A stretch of 64,000 bases of DNA from Actinomyces sp. (GCF_030524025.1 NZ_JAUNHI010000003.1:27294-91293); one strand, 5' to 3'. Shown: positions 49,137-55,536, counted from the first letter of the stretch. The notes: generated by a model from the letters alone, not told the origin. Program-made: numbers and translations.

Positions 49137-49317
49137 ACCCGTCGTCAACAACACGGACCCACCGGCAGGGGCGCAGAGGGGGCGGAGGGGAGCAATACCC
49201 GGAGGCGGAACTTGCCCCGCGGTCCTCCGGCGTGTGATGCTGAATCCGGCGGAGTTCCGCATTTCTTGACATTGCTTGACCTGAGCGACAAACCTGACCT
49301 CCCTGGAAAGGCTCATC

Positions 49318-50880
49318 ATGCACATTGACACGCCCCGGCCGACTGCGCTGTGGCGCCGTACCCTCGCTTTTCTCCTCGCTACTCCCTTGGCCGCAGCCGC
49401 CCTGGCCGTCCCCGCCCAGGCCGACACCCAGCCGCAACCCGTCCCTCTTGACCAGATCAGCGCCTCCGGCTCCTACGACTCGACCTCCGAGGCGTGTCGC
49501 GGCTCGGAGGATGCCTCCGACTGCCTGACCTGGGCGGTGGTCGTGCCCGACTCCCTGGCGGCCGAGGACGGCTCGGTGACCGTCACCGTCGAGGCCGACT
49601 CGGCGCCGGGCCAGTGGAGCTGGGCCTGCCCGGCCGCCACCCGGGCGGCCGGCACCGCCAGCTTCCTCACCCCCGACAGTCAGACCGGCGGGGTCAGCGT
49701 CCTGGCCAGCGCCGAACTGTCCGAGCACTCGACACTCAACTACGGCCTGTACGGGGACTCGGTGGCCTCGATCGACACCGTCGAGTGCACCCCCGAGCAC
49801 CTGCGGCTGACCGTGAGCGCCGACTTCTCCTACCAGCCGGCGGGCTCTTATCTCACCCTGGACCTCGGCACGGCGGTCCACGCCCCGGGCACCGCCGAAC
49901 GCAGCTACGACTTCGCCCCGGAGGTCATCGCCTCGACCCGCACCGACTCGGTGACCCCGACGGCCACCGTCCAGAAGAAGGACGCGGCCGCCGCGCAGGT
50001 GTCGGTGACCACGAGCCGGGTCGATGATCCCGCCGCCCAGGCCGGCGCCGGGGCCATGGCTATTGAGGCGCGCAACGACTCGGCCTCCGCCCTGACTGAC
50101 TTCACCGTCTCGCCGGCGGTGACCACCGGGCCGGCCACGATCACCTCGCTGACCTGTGACCTGATCGCCTACGGTGGGCAGGTCGTCACCGACTCCGACC
50201 CGGCCGACGGTCTGAGCGTGGCCAGCGGCACCGCCTCAGTGCCCAGCGGGCAGGCCGTCAGCTGCCGGGCCGACCTGGCCGGCGTCGTGGGCCGCAACAC
50301 GGTGACCACCTCGGTGACGGCGGGCGGCGAGACCTTCACCGGCGCCTACACCGACGACCGCCCGGTCACGAGCACGGCCCTGACCACCGAGTCCCCCACG
50401 GTCCAGGTCGAGTCCCTGAGCCCCGGGGCCGATGGCAGCCCGCGCAACTACGTCGCCTTGACCTACACGGTCACCTTCACCAACACGACGGATGCGGCGG
50501 GCCGCACCCCCCAGGTGGTCCTCCACCCCCACACGCCCACCGGACTGAGCTTCGCCGGCGTGTGGGCCGCCTGGCAGTGGCAGGAGGGGACCTTCAAGCC
50601 CTACAGCGACTTCCTCGTCCCGGAGGCGGACGGCACCCTGCACCTGCCCAACGAGACCGCCCTGGGGGCCTACTCGACGCACACGGTCAGCCTGACCGCC
50701 TACTACGACATCGACGTCGCCGCTGTCACGGCGGCGGGAGGCTGGGACCAGCTCGGCGCCTGCGTGGCGGGCGACCCGACAACCGGCCTGACCACCGACG
50801 TCGAGGTCACCGCCGGCCCCGGCATCGAGGCCACGACCCACACGACCTGCACGGCCGTGACCCGTCCCGAGGGCCAGTAG
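49318..50880 (+). CDS. secreted Thr/Ser/Ala-rich protein of unknown function
   Basis: Signal peptide ending LAVPAQA|DT. 520 aa. No LPXTG or lipobox. Beta-rich low-complexity composition. Confidence 0.6.
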   Translation: MHIDTPRPTALWRRTLAFLLATPLAAAALAVPAQADTQPQPVPLDQISASGSYDSTSEACRGSEDASDCLTWAVVVPDSLAAEDGSVTVTVEADSAPGQWSWACPAATRAAGTASFLTPDSQTGGVSVLASAELSEHSTLNYGLYGDSVASIDTVECTPEHLRLTVSADFSYQPAGSYLTLDLGTAVHAPGTAERSYDFAPEVIASTRTDSVTPTATVQKKDAAAAQVSVTTSRVDDPAAQAGAGAMAIEARNDSASALTDFTVSPAVTTGPATITSLTCDLIAYGGQVVTDSDPADGLSVASGTASVPSGQAVSCRADLAGVVGRNTVTTSVTAGGETFTGAYTDDRPVTSTALTTESPTVQVESLSPGADGSPRNYVALTYTVTFTNTTDAAGRTPQVVLHPHTPTGLSFAGVWAAWQWQEGTFKPYSDFLVPEADGTLHLPNETALGAYSTHTVSLTAYYDIDVAAVTAAGGWDQLGACVAGDPTTGLTTDVEVTAGPGIEATTHTTCTAVTRPEGQ

Positions 50881-51005
50881 GTCCCCGCTCACGGAACCCC
50901 GCCACCGGCTCGCCGGCTGACCGCCCCAGGGGCGTCGGCCGGCGAGCCGCCGTTGGTGGCGGCCCCGCGCGGCAGGCTACGTGGCAGGCGCGGTAGGGTC
51001 GGGCC

Positions 51006-51512
51006 ATGGCTTCACTGCTCACCCGGGTGCTGGGCGCCCTGACACGCGCCCCCGCCTCTCCCCCCGCGACGGCCCGGCCCGCCTCGAAGCAGGGGGTGGC
51101 CGTCTACGACGTGGCGGCGCGAGGGCTGCCCGCCTTCACCTACGCCCCCGACCCCGACGGCCAGGCCGACCCCGGGGAGGTCGTGTGGACCTGGGTGCCC
51201 TACGAGGACGACCCCTCCCGCGGCAAGGACAGGCCCGTCCTCGTCCTGTCCCGCCTGCCCGAGGGGTTCGTCGTGGCCCAGATGACGAGCAAGGACCACG
51301 ACCGCGACGCCGCGCAGGAGGCCCGCTGGGGCAGGTACTGGGTCGATGTGGGCACCGGGGCCTGGGACAGCCGCGGCCGGCCCTCCGAGCTCCGCCTTGA
51401 CCGCCTCCTCATCGTCGCCCCGACGGCGGTGCGTCGTGAGGGGGCGACGATGAGCCGAGCCACCTTCGAGCGGGTCGTGGCGGCCCTGCGCTCCCACTGT
51501 GGAACGCTGTAA
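51006..51512 (+). CDS. PemK/MazF-fold toxin-like protein, solitary
   Basis: GEVVWTWVPYEDDPSRGKDRPVLVLS...GFVVAQMTSKD...LDRLLIV fits the PemK/MazF SH3-like barrel pattern, with a roughly 50-aa N-terminal extension. No adjacent antitoxin-sized ORF. Confidence 0.5.
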   Translation: MASLLTRVLGALTRAPASPPATARPASKQGVAVYDVAARGLPAFTYAPDPDGQADPGEVVWTWVPYEDDPSRGKDRPVLVLSRLPEGFVVAQMTSKDHDRDAAQEARWGRYWVDVGTGAWDSRGRPSELRLDRLLIVAPTAVRREGATMSRATFERVVAALRSHCGTL

Positions 51513-51597
51513 ACTAGGCAAGAGGCCCAGTCCCCGGTCGCATCATGACCCTGTCAACCGCCCCGCCAGGTCGCCACCCACACCTCTTCGATGGACC

Positions 51598-51750
51598 TGG
51601 GCAGTGGTCTGGTTCGGCCTTGTGGAGCGCCAGACCGTACGACGCGGGGTATTCAAGTCCGTCAAGGACCCCAACACCGAGCTCCGCGCCTACATCGATG
51701 GCTGGAACAAACGTTCCCGCCCCTTCACCTGGACCAAGACCGCAGAATAG
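51598..51750 (+). mobile_element. IS630-family (DDE_3) transposase C-terminal remnant
   Basis: WFGLVERQTVRRGVFKSVKDPNTELRAYIDGWNKRSRPFTWTKTAE matches the conserved C-terminal tail of IS630-like transposases (..RRGxFxSVxDL..I..yI..wN....PFxWTKTA). The DDE catalytic domain and inverted repeats are absent. Confidence 0.55.
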
Positions 51751-51946
51751 GTCTGGCCAATGTCAACAATCCCAGAATCGCCAGCTCTCGCCGTTAGCAA
51801 CGTCATGAAATGAACATCACTTAGAACCATGTTGCTAGCGACATCCGCACTAGTTTCCGTCTCCCACTGGACTGAGCGCCTCATAGCGCATAGAATGACG
51901 CCACGCGACACCGCCGTCGCACATGAACTCAAGGAAGGATAGCCTC

Positions 51947-52132
51947 ATGCCCAAACCATGGCTGAGGTACCTGGAAGTACGGGAGAAATTTGACCGTTGT
52001 ATGGTCCAAGTTCTACCACCCGACCCGGAGGCACGGCTCATCCGTGAAGAACGCGATAGTGACCGTTCGCTCTCCCCTGGTGGGCGCTGGCCAGTGGTCC
52101 GTCGCCCAGGTCCGCGCCACTCCAGGCAATAA
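51947..52132 (+). CDS. small basic hypothetical protein (61 aa)
   Basis: AAGGAAGGA RBS 7 nt upstream of the ATG. MPKPWLRYLEVREKFDRCMVQVLPPDPEARLIREERD... Lies in lower-GC DNA. No homology recognised. Confidence 0.25.
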   Translation: MPKPWLRYLEVREKFDRCMVQVLPPDPEARLIREERDSDRSLSPGGRWPVVRRPGPRHSRQ

Positions 52133-52163
52133 CCAAGCGTTCTACCGGTTCGGATAAGGTACG

Positions 52164-52197
52164 GGGGTGGTGAACTAGTGTACTGGCTCACCACCCC
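52164..52197 (+). other. perfect 10-bp hairpin GGGGTGGTGA-n14-TCACCACCCC, 22 nt upstream of the membrane-protein start
   Basis: Read directly from the sequence. Loop is ACTAGTGTACTGGC. Sits between the small ORF stop and ATG 52219. No U-run follows. Confidence 0.45.
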
Positions 52198-52218
52198 TAT
52201 CCCTGATACTGACAGATT

Positions 52219-54213
52219 GTGAACATGCAACACCTCGTGCGTCTGGTGCACGCCTTCAACCTGCTGCTGCTCATCGCATGCACCGTCATCATCCCCCAGC
52301 AGATCACCCCCACCTACTTCCCCGCGGAAGCCTCCGCCTACATCGCCATCGGTGCCAACGGCGTCACCAGCGCCGAGCTCATGAAGACGGCAACCGCCGA
52401 GAACGTCGTGCTCGCCCGCGCCCGACACGTCGGTGACAGCCAGACGCGCACCCTGACCATCGAAGTCGTCGGTGACGACCCGAACGCACAAGCGCTGGCC
52501 GAGCAGCCCCCGATCGGGCCGATCTTCACCCCGACACCCATCGCCTACGAGCATGTGGCGCCGACCACCGAACCTTATGGGGCCTGGTACGTCATCGGCG
52601 ACCCTCCCCAGGTGCGCACGTTCCTCACTCGTATCGTTAACACCTACGGCCCGGCAGTGATCGAAAGTGGACTGTTGTCACCAGCCTCCGTGTCCTCCCT
52701 CTGGGCCGCATTGCGTCAGTCGCCGCTGGGGATCAGCGCGCTGGCCTTGCAGCCCGCGATCGCGCTGACAGTCGTCCTCAGCGTGATGCGTCGGCCGCAG
52801 ATCGCACGGATTGCCCTGACCTGCGGTGCCTCACCCACGGCGATCACCGTTGGGACACTGGGCGCCCACCTCGCACGGGCTTCGCGCTGGACCATTCTTC
52901 CCGCCGCGGCCGTGCTGCTCATCATCGGTTACGACGTGTACCAGTCGGACGTTCTGAGCGTGCACCGTCTGATGGTCGGCATTCTCCTGACCCTGGTCAT
53001 CAGCACGGTTCTGGCCACCGCGCTCGCCGCACTACTGGCCTGTACAGTCGTGACCCGTCGCACCCAGGACATCGCGAGTACGGCGACGTCACATCTGACC
53101 TTCGCCCTTCTTTATCTCACCTCCCTGAGTCTGGTCTGGTCCTTCGCTCACGCAAGCCCAGCACTGGGCGCCACGATCACCGACGCAAGGGCCACTCACG
53201 ATCAAGCGCTCGCCCAAACCGAGATGCCCGGCTCCTACTCACCGACCATCTGGTACACGCATGAGGATGTCGTCCAGCAGATCATGCCCCGATGGACCAA
53301 GTTCATCAGAGATGAGGAACAGGCGGGCCACGTGCTTCTCGCATGGTCTTTGCCAGACCCCTCGGTCCGGGACGGAGGCACTCCGGCACTGTTTCTCAAC
53401 AACCAGGCAGCCGCCTTCTTCGGTATCCCGCCCACAGCGGATGACGCCGCCACCATCTACCTCCCGGAGCACCTGGGTGAGACGGATGATGCCGTGGCCG
53501 AGCGTGTCGAGTCGCTCTCGCAGTGGGAGCACGGCCTGGGCGCACAGAAAACAGTGGCGGCACATGTTGAGCGGAGTCCGGACGTCTTCACCCGTCTGCC
53601 AATGAACCTGCCGGCACTGAGCTATGCGGGGACCGTATCCGGACTGACCTCTCAAGACCATGTCCTGGTCGTCGTGCCCGACGGATTCTTCTCACCCGAC
53701 AACCAGTTCTCCGCAACCACTCTGGGGGGGCTAGTGCTTCTCGCGGAATCCGATGAGTCTCTGACGGACACCTTAACCTCCTATGGGCTGGACGGGATGG
53801 TCGCTGAAATCCGCCAGATCGGCGACGGCGACTCCGCGGTTCTGCGCGCATCGCGCACAACACTGGGCCTGCTGGCCGGGGTCGCGCTCCTGGCGGCCGT
53901 GTCTGCCGCAGTGACATCCGCTGTGGCAGCACGTGCGTGGGTGGAGGCCACCCGACGCGCCAGGCGCATCCGTCGCCTCCACGGCCGTGGTCGGGTGCGA
54001 GACGTCGTCGTCGGGGTCACCCTCTGTCTTCCACCCGGGCTGCTGCTGCTGCTCGTCGGAGTGACCGCCGACGACGTCACAAGGATGCTCTGTCTCACCA
54101 CAGCGCTCCTCCTGGCCGTCGTCACCGTGGCCTCGGCGGCCAGTGGTTCACCCGCCCGGTGGCACCACCGCCACACCCGCCAGTCGACTCTCACGCACCT
54201 GGATCCTTCATGA
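52219..54213 (+). CDS. 664-aa polytopic membrane protein, putative ABC transporter permease (two TM-bundle plus extracytoplasmic-domain halves, MacB/FtsX-like topology)
   Basis: N-terminal TM (LVHAFNLLLLIACTVII). A domain of about 160 aa. A cluster of 4 TM helices. A domain of about 220 aa. Then 2-3 C-terminal TM helices. The stop overlaps the ATPase start (ATGA). Codons are visibly more A/T-rich than in neighbouring genes. Confidence 0.6.
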   Translation: MNMQHLVRLVHAFNLLLLIACTVIIPQQITPTYFPAEASAYIAIGANGVTSAELMKTATAENVVLARARHVGDSQTRTLTIEVVGDDPNAQALAEQPPIGPIFTPTPIAYEHVAPTTEPYGAWYVIGDPPQVRTFLTRIVNTYGPAVIESGLLSPASVSSLWAALRQSPLGISALALQPAIALTVVLSVMRRPQIARIALTCGASPTAITVGTLGAHLARASRWTILPAAAVLLIIGYDVYQSDVLSVHRLMVGILLTLVISTVLATALAALLACTVVTRRTQDIASTATSHLTFALLYLTSLSLVWSFAHASPALGATITDARATHDQALAQTEMPGSYSPTIWYTHEDVVQQIMPRWTKFIRDEEQAGHVLLAWSLPDPSVRDGGTPALFLNNQAAAFFGIPPTADDAATIYLPEHLGETDDAVAERVESLSQWEHGLGAQKTVAAHVERSPDVFTRLPMNLPALSYAGTVSGLTSQDHVLVVVPDGFFSPDNQFSATTLGGLVLLAESDESLTDTLTSYGLDGMVAEIRQIGDGDSAVLRASRTTLGLLAGVALLAAVSAAVTSAVAARAWVEATRRARRIRRLHGRGRVRDVVVGVTLCLPPGLLLLLVGVTADDVTRMLCLTTALLLAVVTVASAASGSPARWHHRHTRQSTLTHLDPS

Positions 54214-54893
54214 CCGACATCGTCCTCGCTTCCGACCTGACCATCAGCAGAGGAGGTCGCACTCTTGTCAGCGGCCTGACCCTGGGCCTGTCGGCGGGCT
54301 CCGTCACCGCACTGACAGGCCCGAACGGATCGGGCAAAACCACGCTCGCCCGTTGTCTGGGCCTCTACGACCTCGACTTCAACGGGACGGTGAGGGTCGA
54401 TGACCGTGCCACCCAGACCATATCCGCACGCGAGCTCAGAGCCCTTCACCAAGGGACGATCGTCATCCAGCCCCAGGAACTCATGCTCGAGCCGTCCTGG
54501 AGTGCGCTGCGGAACCTGACCTACGCCGCCTGGGCCCTCGGCCTGCCCCGGCGCTGTCGGAAGCGCACGGCGCACGAGGTCCTGGAACGGGTTGGCGCCT
54601 CCCACCTGGCCAACACCACCGTTGAGCGCCTCAGCGGGGGCGAACAGGCCCGGATCGCGATCGCTCGCCTCCTGCTGTCCCCGGACCCACGGCTCATGAT
54701 CCTCGACGAGCCCACGGCCAGCGGCGATCGCGCGCTGCGGGATCTTGTCTCCGACGTCATCCGCTCCACCGTCGGACGCGGCGCAGCAGTCCTGCTCATC
54801 AGCCATGACCAGGCGCTAAGGTCCCTGACCGACGTGGAGATCCCTGTGGGGGCCGACGCCTCCGGAGCAGCCGACCGAACGCACCGGAGTTGA
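54210..54893 (+). CDS. ABC transporter ATP-binding protein
   Basis: Walker [11 protein letters not shown]-loop, signature [15 protein letters not shown], Walker [14 protein letters not shown]-loop ISHD. 227 aa. Confidence 0.85.
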
Positions 54894-55087
54894 CGCACCT
54901 CACGCCTCCGGCGGGAGGAGCCCCGGTCGGGCGTGATGCTACAGTCTCTCCTTGGACCTCTGGCCTGGCCGGCTGCGGGGTCTGGCGACCGGGCCCCGCC
55001 AGGTGCTTCCACCACCGTCCGTCGGCCCGCGACGCGAACCCTCTTTCCGGCCATCGACCATTCAGACACGAGAAAGCTTCACTCACC

Positions 55088-55348
55088 GTGGCGAACATCA
55101 AGTCCCAAATCAAGCGCATCAAGACCAACGAGAAGGCCCGCCTGCGCAACCAGTCCATCAAGTCCGAGCTCAAGACGCATGTGCGCCGCGTCCGCGAGGC
55201 CGTCGAGGCCGGCGACAAGGAGGCCGCCGCCGCGCTTCTCAAGACCGCGTGCCGCAAGCTCGACAAGGCCGTGTCCAAGGGCGTCATCCACAAGAACCAG
55301 GCCGCCAACCGCAAGTCCAAGCTGGCCAAGCGCGTCAACTCCCTGTGA
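55088..55348 (+). CDS. rpsT: 30S ribosomal protein S20
   Basis: GTG start. [30 protein letters not shown] is the canonical S20 N-terminus. 86 aa. Confidence 0.9.
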
Positions 55349-55536
55349 CCCCGCCCGGGGCCGCAAGCGGTCCACGAGCAGTCAAGGAGGGCGTCTCCCG
55401 CACGGGGAGGCGCCCTTCGTCACGCCATCGAGGGCCGGACTCGCCGCCGGCGGATGCGCCGAGGCCGGGGGCACGGGGCTACGATGCCCCGGGCCGGGGG
55501 ACCTCCCGGCCGCAGGAGAGAGGAGCAGGAGTGCCG

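Follow-up and report, generated by a model that had tools for sequence, protein, structure and literature searches.

Lactococcin 972 (Lcn972) binds lipid II (PMC11796350) and blocks septum formation. Lcn972 loci are classically composed of three genes and include presumed immunity and transport proteins (PMC11796350). In lcn972-orf2-orf3 of the founding plasmid pBL1 (Lactococcus lactis, NC_004955), a toxin of 91 amino acids (aa) is followed by a 55-nucleotide (nt) hairpin spacer, the 648-aa ORF2 (annotated as 'bacteriocin-associated integral membrane family protein') and, just after it, the 207-aa ATPase ORF3. The orf2-orf3 pair is regarded as a putative immunity ATP-binding cassette (ABC) transporter; the minimum inhibitory concentration increases from 12.5 to 800–1600 AU/mL in cluster-bearing cells (PMC4055356). 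Toxins of this type have Sec signal peptides (PMC11796350, PMC12345188) and hence need no dedicated exporter. A further three-gene locus of the same type is the pneumococcal scbABC (streptococcin B); about 25 % of pneumococci are without a functional scb toxin and, among them, at least D39-type strains retain scbBC (PMC11796350). DUF1430 already shares a Pfam clan with FtsX (PMC6588880). Here we analyse an island found in one 64,000-nt stretch of the chromosome of Actinomyces sp. (GCF_030524025.1, NZ_JAUNHI010000003.1:27294-91293; hereafter 'the window', with positions counted from its first letter), which contains the remnant of a Lactococcin_972 gene, a hairpin, a 664-aa membrane protein and an ABC ATPase.

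The locus is of the known Lcn972 bacteriocin/immunity type, of which it is a very divergent member, and it is not an uncharacterised new system. An initial annotation of the window had recognised no described family here; that statement no longer holds, as the island has the three genes of the known locus, namely bacteriocin, DUF1430/TIGR01654 membrane protein and ABC ATPase. We consider it likely that the island is a chromosomally inserted, decayed Lcn972-type bacteriocin locus, which has lost its toxin and kept its transporter intact, and that the pair now acts as orphan immunity. As in pBL1, with which sizes and spacing also agree, the order is toxin (remnant), hairpin spacer (61 nt), membrane protein and ATPase (227 aa), the PF09683 domain is present, and the membrane proteins are homologous by profile-profile comparison. 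Whereas pBL1 is a plasmid of a Firmicute, the locus described here sits on the chromosome of a high-G+C actinobacterium; its toxin is a pseudogene, and its membrane protein has diverged beyond the reach of the Pfam and NCBIfam models. The toxin precursors of the actinobacterial relatives are also longer (109–141 aa, with a pro-region).

Concerning the toxin, a tblastn search with the bacteriocin of a related locus (L082) finds positions 51,966–52,118 (E 4.6e-8), and all other matches in the 64 kb are no better than E ~1. The translated 63-aa remnant, GTWKYGRNLTVVWSKFYHPTRRHGSSVKNAIVTVRSPLVGAGQWSVAQVRATPGNNQAFYRFG, matches PF09683 with 56.9 bits (cutoff 22; E 3.2e-15) over profile positions 3–62 of 62, and it ends 61 nt before the membrane-protein gene, the place of the structural gene in Lcn972 loci. 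Its identity is 53 % to the bacteriocin of L090, 50 % to that of L091, 48 % to that of L082 and 26 % to Lcn972 of pBL1. The mature domain is complete (coding positions 51,966–52,154, stop codon TAA at 52,155–52,157), and an in-frame TGA (51,963–51,965) directly precedes its first glycine, with more stops further upstream. A leader or signal peptide was sought in all frames of 51,757–51,962, where nothing resembles a signal peptide and there is no homology to the leaders of L082, L086, L090 and L091; an intact structural gene with an N-terminal Sec signal peptide is absent from the locus. The bacteriocin gene is thus a pseudogene, with a complete mature domain, an in-frame TGA, a lost signal peptide and the stump of an IS630-family transposase upstream. 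That the TGA arose from a frameshift or an assembly error was considered and rejected on the basis of a separately assembled Logan contig, which is identical to the window over 49,225–55,305 (6,081 nt) and may derive from the same reads; because of this identity, the features of the island are not artefacts of one assembler. The 61-codon basic open reading frame (ORF) reported by the initial annotation does exist, and it is probably a wrong-frame reading of the pseudogene and not a gene: it lies out of frame with the Lactococcin_972 remnant, it has no family matches in Pfam or NCBIfam, and its G+C content at third codon positions (GC3) is 0.59 vs 0.67–0.75 in the Lactococcin_972 frame, the highest of the three frames.

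The hairpin begins 6 nt past the toxin stop codon. It has an 11-bp perfect outer stem, in agreement with the perfect hairpin noted initially, and a folding energy of -32.2 kcal/mol (z -3.95). At the equivalent position, L091 has a stem-loop of -44 kcal/mol (z -7.1), whose GGGGTGGTGAAC core is common with the window. Equivalent stem-loops are also strong in L086 and pBL1 (z about -3.7 to -3.8; pBL1: -20.9 kcal/mol, z -3.7); the one in L082 is weaker (z -2.1), and L090 lacks a significant one (z -0.17). Based on these results, a stem-loop separates toxin and transporter in four of the five related loci folded, including the founding plasmid. The intrinsic-terminator scan does not flag the window hairpin, which has no U-tract, and it is likely an intra-operon attenuator or mRNA stabiliser.

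The 664-aa protein (662 aa as annotated by NCBI, from an ATG at 52,225) has few relatives. A word-indexed search of 5.8e9 proteins returns the protein itself, which is annotated in a metagenome-assembled genome of Actinomyces sp., and one relative with 34 % identity; an exhaustive HMMER scan of 1.84e9 cluster representatives returns 21 proteins at E <= 1e-3, about 12 of which are full-length (654–672 aa). The protein belongs to a small clade of about 21 cluster representatives, which is probably actinobacterial. Weak collinear matches to TIGR01654 are found in five of the 12 family members (the best in P0017: E 7e-11, residues 170–618 vs profile positions 182–630 of 681), and PF07242/DUF1430 is matched by four; all these matches lie far under the curated cutoffs. 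Starting from P0017, a search for a link to DUF1430 found only three close relatives, and the connection was made via pBL1 instead. In profile-profile comparison, the family alignment (A4) matches pBL1 ORF2 alone with 92.4 % probability; against an alignment of ORF2 and Lactococcus DUF1430 proteins, hhalign gives 96.6 % (E 5e-10) over 544 collinear columns (4–597 to 3–590). Judged by these alignments, the 664-aa protein is a remote, full-length homologue of bona fide DUF1430 members. It shares with DUF1430/TIGR01654 the length (about 650–680 aa), the operon context and the collinear homology, and it differs in scores far under the cutoffs and in the number of transmembrane (TM) helices (eight in the structure model vs seven annotated). 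The initial annotation had named a match to a well-characterised permease family as evidence against itself; the match found speaks only in part against it, since the family is a described one whose function has had no experimental test (PMC11796350).

Based on the AlphaFold2 model (predicted local distance difference test 78, predicted TM-score 0.72), the protein contains eight TM helices and two ectodomains in the order TM1, mixed alpha/beta ectodomain, TM2–4, TM5, larger ectodomain, TM6–8, with the basic loops cytoplasmic. Foldseek against the PDB places YbbAP first (E 4.5e-8), followed by BceAB, LolCDE, HrtBA and MacB. The two halves of TM bundle and ectodomain, and the resemblance to type VII ABC permeases guessed at the outset, are supported by this topology and ranking. 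With 4-TM bundles and an ectodomain between TM1 and TM2, the fold is predicted to be that of a fused-double MacB/FtsX (type VII ABC) permease. The Pfam FtsX domain (PF02687) is undetected at E <= 1 in the window protein and in all 12 family members. The predicted bundles with a TM1–TM2 extracytoplasmic domain and a separate cytoplasmic ATPase are common to the type VII transporters (YbbAP, BceAB, MacB, LolCDE, HrtBA, FtsEX), and, as in YbbP, the fold unit would occur twice in one chain, with mechanotransmission as the likely mode. Unlike those members, with which sequence identity is 7–14 %, the window permease has ectodomains not recognisable by sequence as Sabre or Porter, and its substrate is presumed to be a folded protein toxin of about 7 kDa. 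It also differs from BceB, a protein of ten TM helices whose one ectodomain lies between TM7 and TM8.

The membrane gene overlaps the ATPase gene at an ATGA, as was also reported initially. The motifs of the ATPase are readable in the translation: Walker A GPNGSGKTT, LSGGEQ, Walker B LMILDEPT and H-loop SHD. TIGR03608 (L_ocin_972_ABC) is its third-best NCBIfam match (106.3 bits), with the cutoff of 254.85 not reached. The ATPase is 30 % identical to pBL1 ORF3 (E 1e-22) and 43–61 % identical to the ATPases of related loci.

There is a difference among the relatives in the presence of the toxin. Intact Lactococcin_972 genes lie directly upstream of four permease relatives (P0013 in L082/L083, P0014 in L086, P0005 in L090 and P0009 in L091), and an ABC ATPase gene lies downstream of the permease in all four (cut by the contig end in L086), an arrangement identical to that of pBL1. 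Full-length pairs with no toxin gene directly upstream are found in L001, Actinomyces dentalis (L005/L093) and L087; L084 also has the pair and may be of this kind, but its contig begins at the permease gene. Toxin loss with the B and C genes kept is described for scbABC (PMC11796350), and the window, L001, L005/L093 and L087 are alike in this. Unlike in scbABC, where ComE/ComR regulation is streptococcal only, no regulator is adjacent to the window locus, and the proteins are only remotely related.

The stretch is a horizontally acquired, accessory and compositionally atypical insertion with a core gene on either side. Locally, the genes are arranged as trpA, a 520-aa secreted protein, the PemK-like gene, the pair, rpsT, a DUF1846 gene and holA. 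An A/T shift from about 51.5 to 54.3 kb had been noticed by the initial annotation, and it is borne out by windowed G+C content: positions 51,500–54,893 have a G+C content of 0.643, the lowest among 606 sliding 3.4-kb windows (mean 0.7145, standard deviation 0.027), about 2.7 standard deviations below the mean (overall G+C of the window: 0.715). The G+C content is 0.54–0.60 at 51.45–52.35 kb and 0.60–0.67 over 52.2–54.0 kb. GC3 is 0.77 in the membrane gene and 0.82 in the ATPase gene, vs 0.92–0.96 in the trpA, PemK, rpsT and DUF1846 genes. Nucleotide homology with insert-free Actinomyces relatives extends up to about 51,491 and resumes from about 54,886. In seven Actinomyces genomes (L002–L004, L006–L009) the pair is missing between PemK and rpsT, an empty site, which agrees with the accessory insertion proposed initially; the pair is located between these genes only in the window, L001 and A. 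dentalis (L005/L093), and in L084 it is followed by rpsT. Between the Actinomyces genomes compared, the flanking core proteins are 72–89 % identical, the ATPases 48–61 % and the permeases only 32–36 %. The GC3 of the module is atypical in the window and in L084, and host-like (0.94) in A. dentalis. The permease divergence and the GC3 pattern fit either old residence with fast ectodomain evolution or cassette replacement at one site.

The IS630 stump recognised by the initial annotation was also recovered. It is 66 % identical to residues 292–352 of a 365-aa Dietzia IS630 transposase (E 9e-21), and it matches 350 plasmid records; among the matches listed, the annotated features are all labelled IS630 family transposase. 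A complete IS630 element (DDE transposase of 340–370 aa with terminal inverted repeats) is not present: only residues ~292–352 remain and an inverted-repeat pair was not found. An Rfam search of 51,400–55,400 gives no matches. The coordinates of all features are presented in Table 1.

Table 1. Position of the island, its components and its flanking genes in the window.
Feature	Position	Strand	Basis or remark
PemK/MazF-fold gene, 168 aa, flanking core gene	51006..51512	+	PF02452 E 2e-9
Low-G+C insert, ~3.37 kb	51513..54885	.	borders from nucleotide homology to insert-free Actinomyces loci and G+C minimum
IS630-family transposase remnant, last ~60 residues of a ~365-aa protein	51577..51756	+	tblastn
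Promoter-like site TGGACT-17-TAGAAT, upstream of the bacteriocin remnant	51868..51896	+	consensus scan, weak
Lactococcin_972-family bacteriocin pseudogene	51930..52157	+	PF09683 match of the translated remnant
61-codon 'basic ORF'	51947..52132	+	out-of-frame overlap of the bacteriocin pseudogene
Stem-loop between bacteriocin gene and transporter genes	52163..52198	+	folding
664-aa polytopic membrane protein, remote DUF1430/TIGR01654 homologue, predicted fused-double type VII (MacB/FtsX-fold) ABC permease	52219..54213	+
227-aa ABC ATPase, translationally coupled to the membrane gene by ATGA overlap	54210..54893	+	PF00005 E 5e-26
Conserved rpsT leader (54,936–55,087) and rpsT gene (GTG 55,088 to 55,348)	54936..55348	+	right border, flanking core

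Concerning the function of the pair, the ancestral unit would have comprised a bacteriocin precursor gene, a stem-loop, a membrane protein of about 660 aa and an ABC ATPase, in which the stem-loop behind the toxin gene would normally determine how much toxin transcript is present relative to transporter transcript. YbbP and BceB each bind two ATPase copies, and the single-chain permease (eight TM helices, two extracytoplasmic domains) may do likewise; two short cytoplasmic coupling helices (about residues 193–201 and 575–590) would dock the nucleotide-binding domains. Doubt that DUF1430 proteins bind domains of this kind has been published (bioRxiv 10.1101/2022.07.08.499254). On the model of BceAB and further type VII transporters, ATP hydrolysis in the cytoplasm would move the outer domains of the permease (mechanotransmission), and this movement could take Lcn972-like bacteriocins, which bind lipid II, off this target or off the membrane surface, or keep them away from the outer side of the membrane. 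Without its own toxin, the pair would provide orphan immunity against bacteriocins from neighbouring strains. The most likely role of the pair is accordingly worded here as that of a putative orphan immunity transporter; of the 'export, immunity or defence' functions suggested in the initial annotation, immunity is the one retained, and defence is not, as defence models match neither the permease nor the PemK-like protein.

Several observations weigh against the reading of the island as a decayed Lcn972-type locus with an immunity transporter. The 664-aa protein has no matches in Pfam and NCBIfam (neither PF07242 nor TIGR01654 at E <= 0.1), the TIGR01654 scores of the family members are 10–41 bits vs a cutoff of 189 (P0013, P0014, P0016 and P0017: 21–41), and the ATPase is no nearer to TIGR03608 than to the heme and CcmA ATPase models, which rank higher. 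The roles of the B and C genes have not been separated experimentally in any Lcn972 locus (PMC11796350). The sole promoter evidence is weak: the consensus scan gives one site vs 0.5 expected by chance, which is not evidence of function. P0008, a 569-aa relative of the A. dentalis permease, aligns up to about residue 390 and then diverges like a frameshifted copy, which suggests decay of the permease in one strain or more. For the permeases of the two near-identical A. dentalis-type loci L005 and L093, the ratio of non-synonymous to synonymous substitution rates (dN/dS) is 0.51, based on only 21 substitutions (9 synonymous, 12 non-synonymous), and is not distinguishable from relaxed constraint. 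The last three points, the dead toxin gene and the IS remnant would suit a functionless relic, that is, a pair which served the bacteriocin only (processing, export, self-immunity) and has been decaying since the toxin was lost. We regard this as unlikely: both ORFs are full-length, of family-typical size (654–672 aa), the ATPase motifs are intact, and at least three other lineages retain intact toxin-less pairs despite the divergence of the permeases to 32–36 % identity. Also, the host-like GC3 of the A. dentalis pair implies long residence without decay. The recurrence of toxin-less intact pairs supports a role of the B and C genes that does not depend on the toxin, which would most simply be immunity to the toxins of neighbours.

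The pair could also be a general envelope module for detoxification or sensing of antimicrobial peptides, of the BceAB or YbbAP kind, in which the bacteriocin linkage is secondary. YbbAP and BceAB are indeed the best structural matches, and response-regulator or histidine-kinase genes are found within a few kb of the pair in L001 and L087; in the window, no two-component system is adjacent to the pair, the predicted topology is not that of BceB, and the family is homologous to pBL1 ORF2. The permease lies directly behind an intact toxin gene in the four relatives named above and behind a toxin remnant in the window (alongside these, L001, L005/L093 and L087 have no toxin gene directly upstream). 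Such a module appears improbable to us. The least credible reading, close to that of the initial annotation, is a novel toxin-linked defence or addiction island formed by the PemK-like toxin and the transporter. The order PemK, permease, ATPase, rpsT is common to the window, L001, L005 and L093, but PemK followed by rpsT without the pair is the common state, seen in 41 of the 81 Actinomycetota loci fetched and in many actinobacterial families. The PemK-like gene has host composition and lies outside the insertion borders, the L091 cluster directly follows trpA, and PemK is not in the context of L082, L086, L087 and L090. PADLOC has no match for the PemK-like protein or the permease, and the distribution already contradicts a PemK island. 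For the ATPase, the PADLOC matches are only of ABC/P-loop type (best match: mad3 of the 'mads' system, E 6e-24) and do not count here as evidence for defence.

Looking at the PemK-like gene separately, its PemK/MazF fold and the lack of a visible antitoxin were correctly described at first, and its membership in the island was not. Homology to the empty sites breaks off at about 51,491 and returns at about 54,886, which places the gene beside the insert, as a conserved core gene and not as a part of the island. Its G+C content (0.75) and GC3 (0.92) are host-like, and its protein has at least 358 relatives in GTDB genomes. In the 41 loci mentioned, rpsT follows it directly, in the same orientation, after 139–598 nt; among them are loci of Actinomyces, Schaalia, Cellulomonas, Isoptericola, Georgenia and others. 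No antitoxin ORF is seen upstream of it, and neither the adjacent antitoxin nor the patchy distribution of a type II toxin-antitoxin module is found. It is unlikely to be a classical mobile toxin of such a module. The gene is also tandemly duplicated in Promicromonospora (L061, L064, L071–L073).

With an Lcn972-type locus as the preferred explanation, five unexplained features become one ordinary story, that of a bacteriocin locus whose toxin is lost and whose presumed immunity pump remains; the 'solitary MazF toxin' and the 'small basic ORF' drop out as false leads. A probably actinobacterial clade of Lcn972-associated permeases escapes the current Pfam and NCBIfam models, and because of this Lcn972-type loci in Actinomyces and its relatives are likely under-annotated. 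The predicted fused-double MacB/FtsX fold points to a concrete mechanism that can be tested. More tentatively, and with less confidence than we have in the decayed locus itself, we propose that the Actinomyces DUF1430-like clade may be a distinct lineage of orphan immunity pumps at a variable trpA–rpsT spot, exchanged or replaced as divergent cassettes, which would protect lipid II from folded Lcn972-type toxins by type VII mechanotransmission, a BceAB-like target protection. If this is true, the pair would be a tractable toxin-free system for assigning function to the Lcn972 B and C genes.

The trpA–rpsT interval shows further variation. The 520-aa secreted protein (49,318–50,880, between trpA and PemK) has no Pfam or NCBIfam match; A. 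acetigenes has two tandem copies and A. timonensis one (L002 6,665–9,826; L007 8,193–9,701), and it is absent in L008 and L009, where trpA abuts PemK. The interval looks variable because of this uneven presence; in L091, the Lcn972 cluster found directly after trpA is intact. Just upstream of PemK, A. dentalis L005 (8,010–9,869) contains a 619-aa protein that resembles an FtsX-type permease by eye from the translation, and L001 (2,414–6,487) contains a HisKA_3/GerE two-component system and an ABC-2 transporter. In A. massiliensis (L006 10,993–13,703), rpsT and the DUF1846 gene, neighbours in the other Actinomyces loci, are separated by about 2.7 kb of extra DNA.

On the right border, the rpsT leader region is 82–91 % identical at the nucleotide level to that of other Actinomyces species, and the rpsT protein is 80–89 % identical. 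The non-coding region upstream of rpsT (54,936–55,090) can be aligned across 29 Actinomycetota loci. It gives no Rfam match at E <= 1. It contains a -10-like TGnTAnnnT, followed by a stem-loop (54,952–54,985) with a conserved GGUCGG-type loop, which is a candidate S20 ribosomal-protein leader. Compensatory changes are found in five of the nine predicted pairs of this stem-loop (AU<->GC in 7 sequences, CG<->UA in 6 and CG<->GC in 5).

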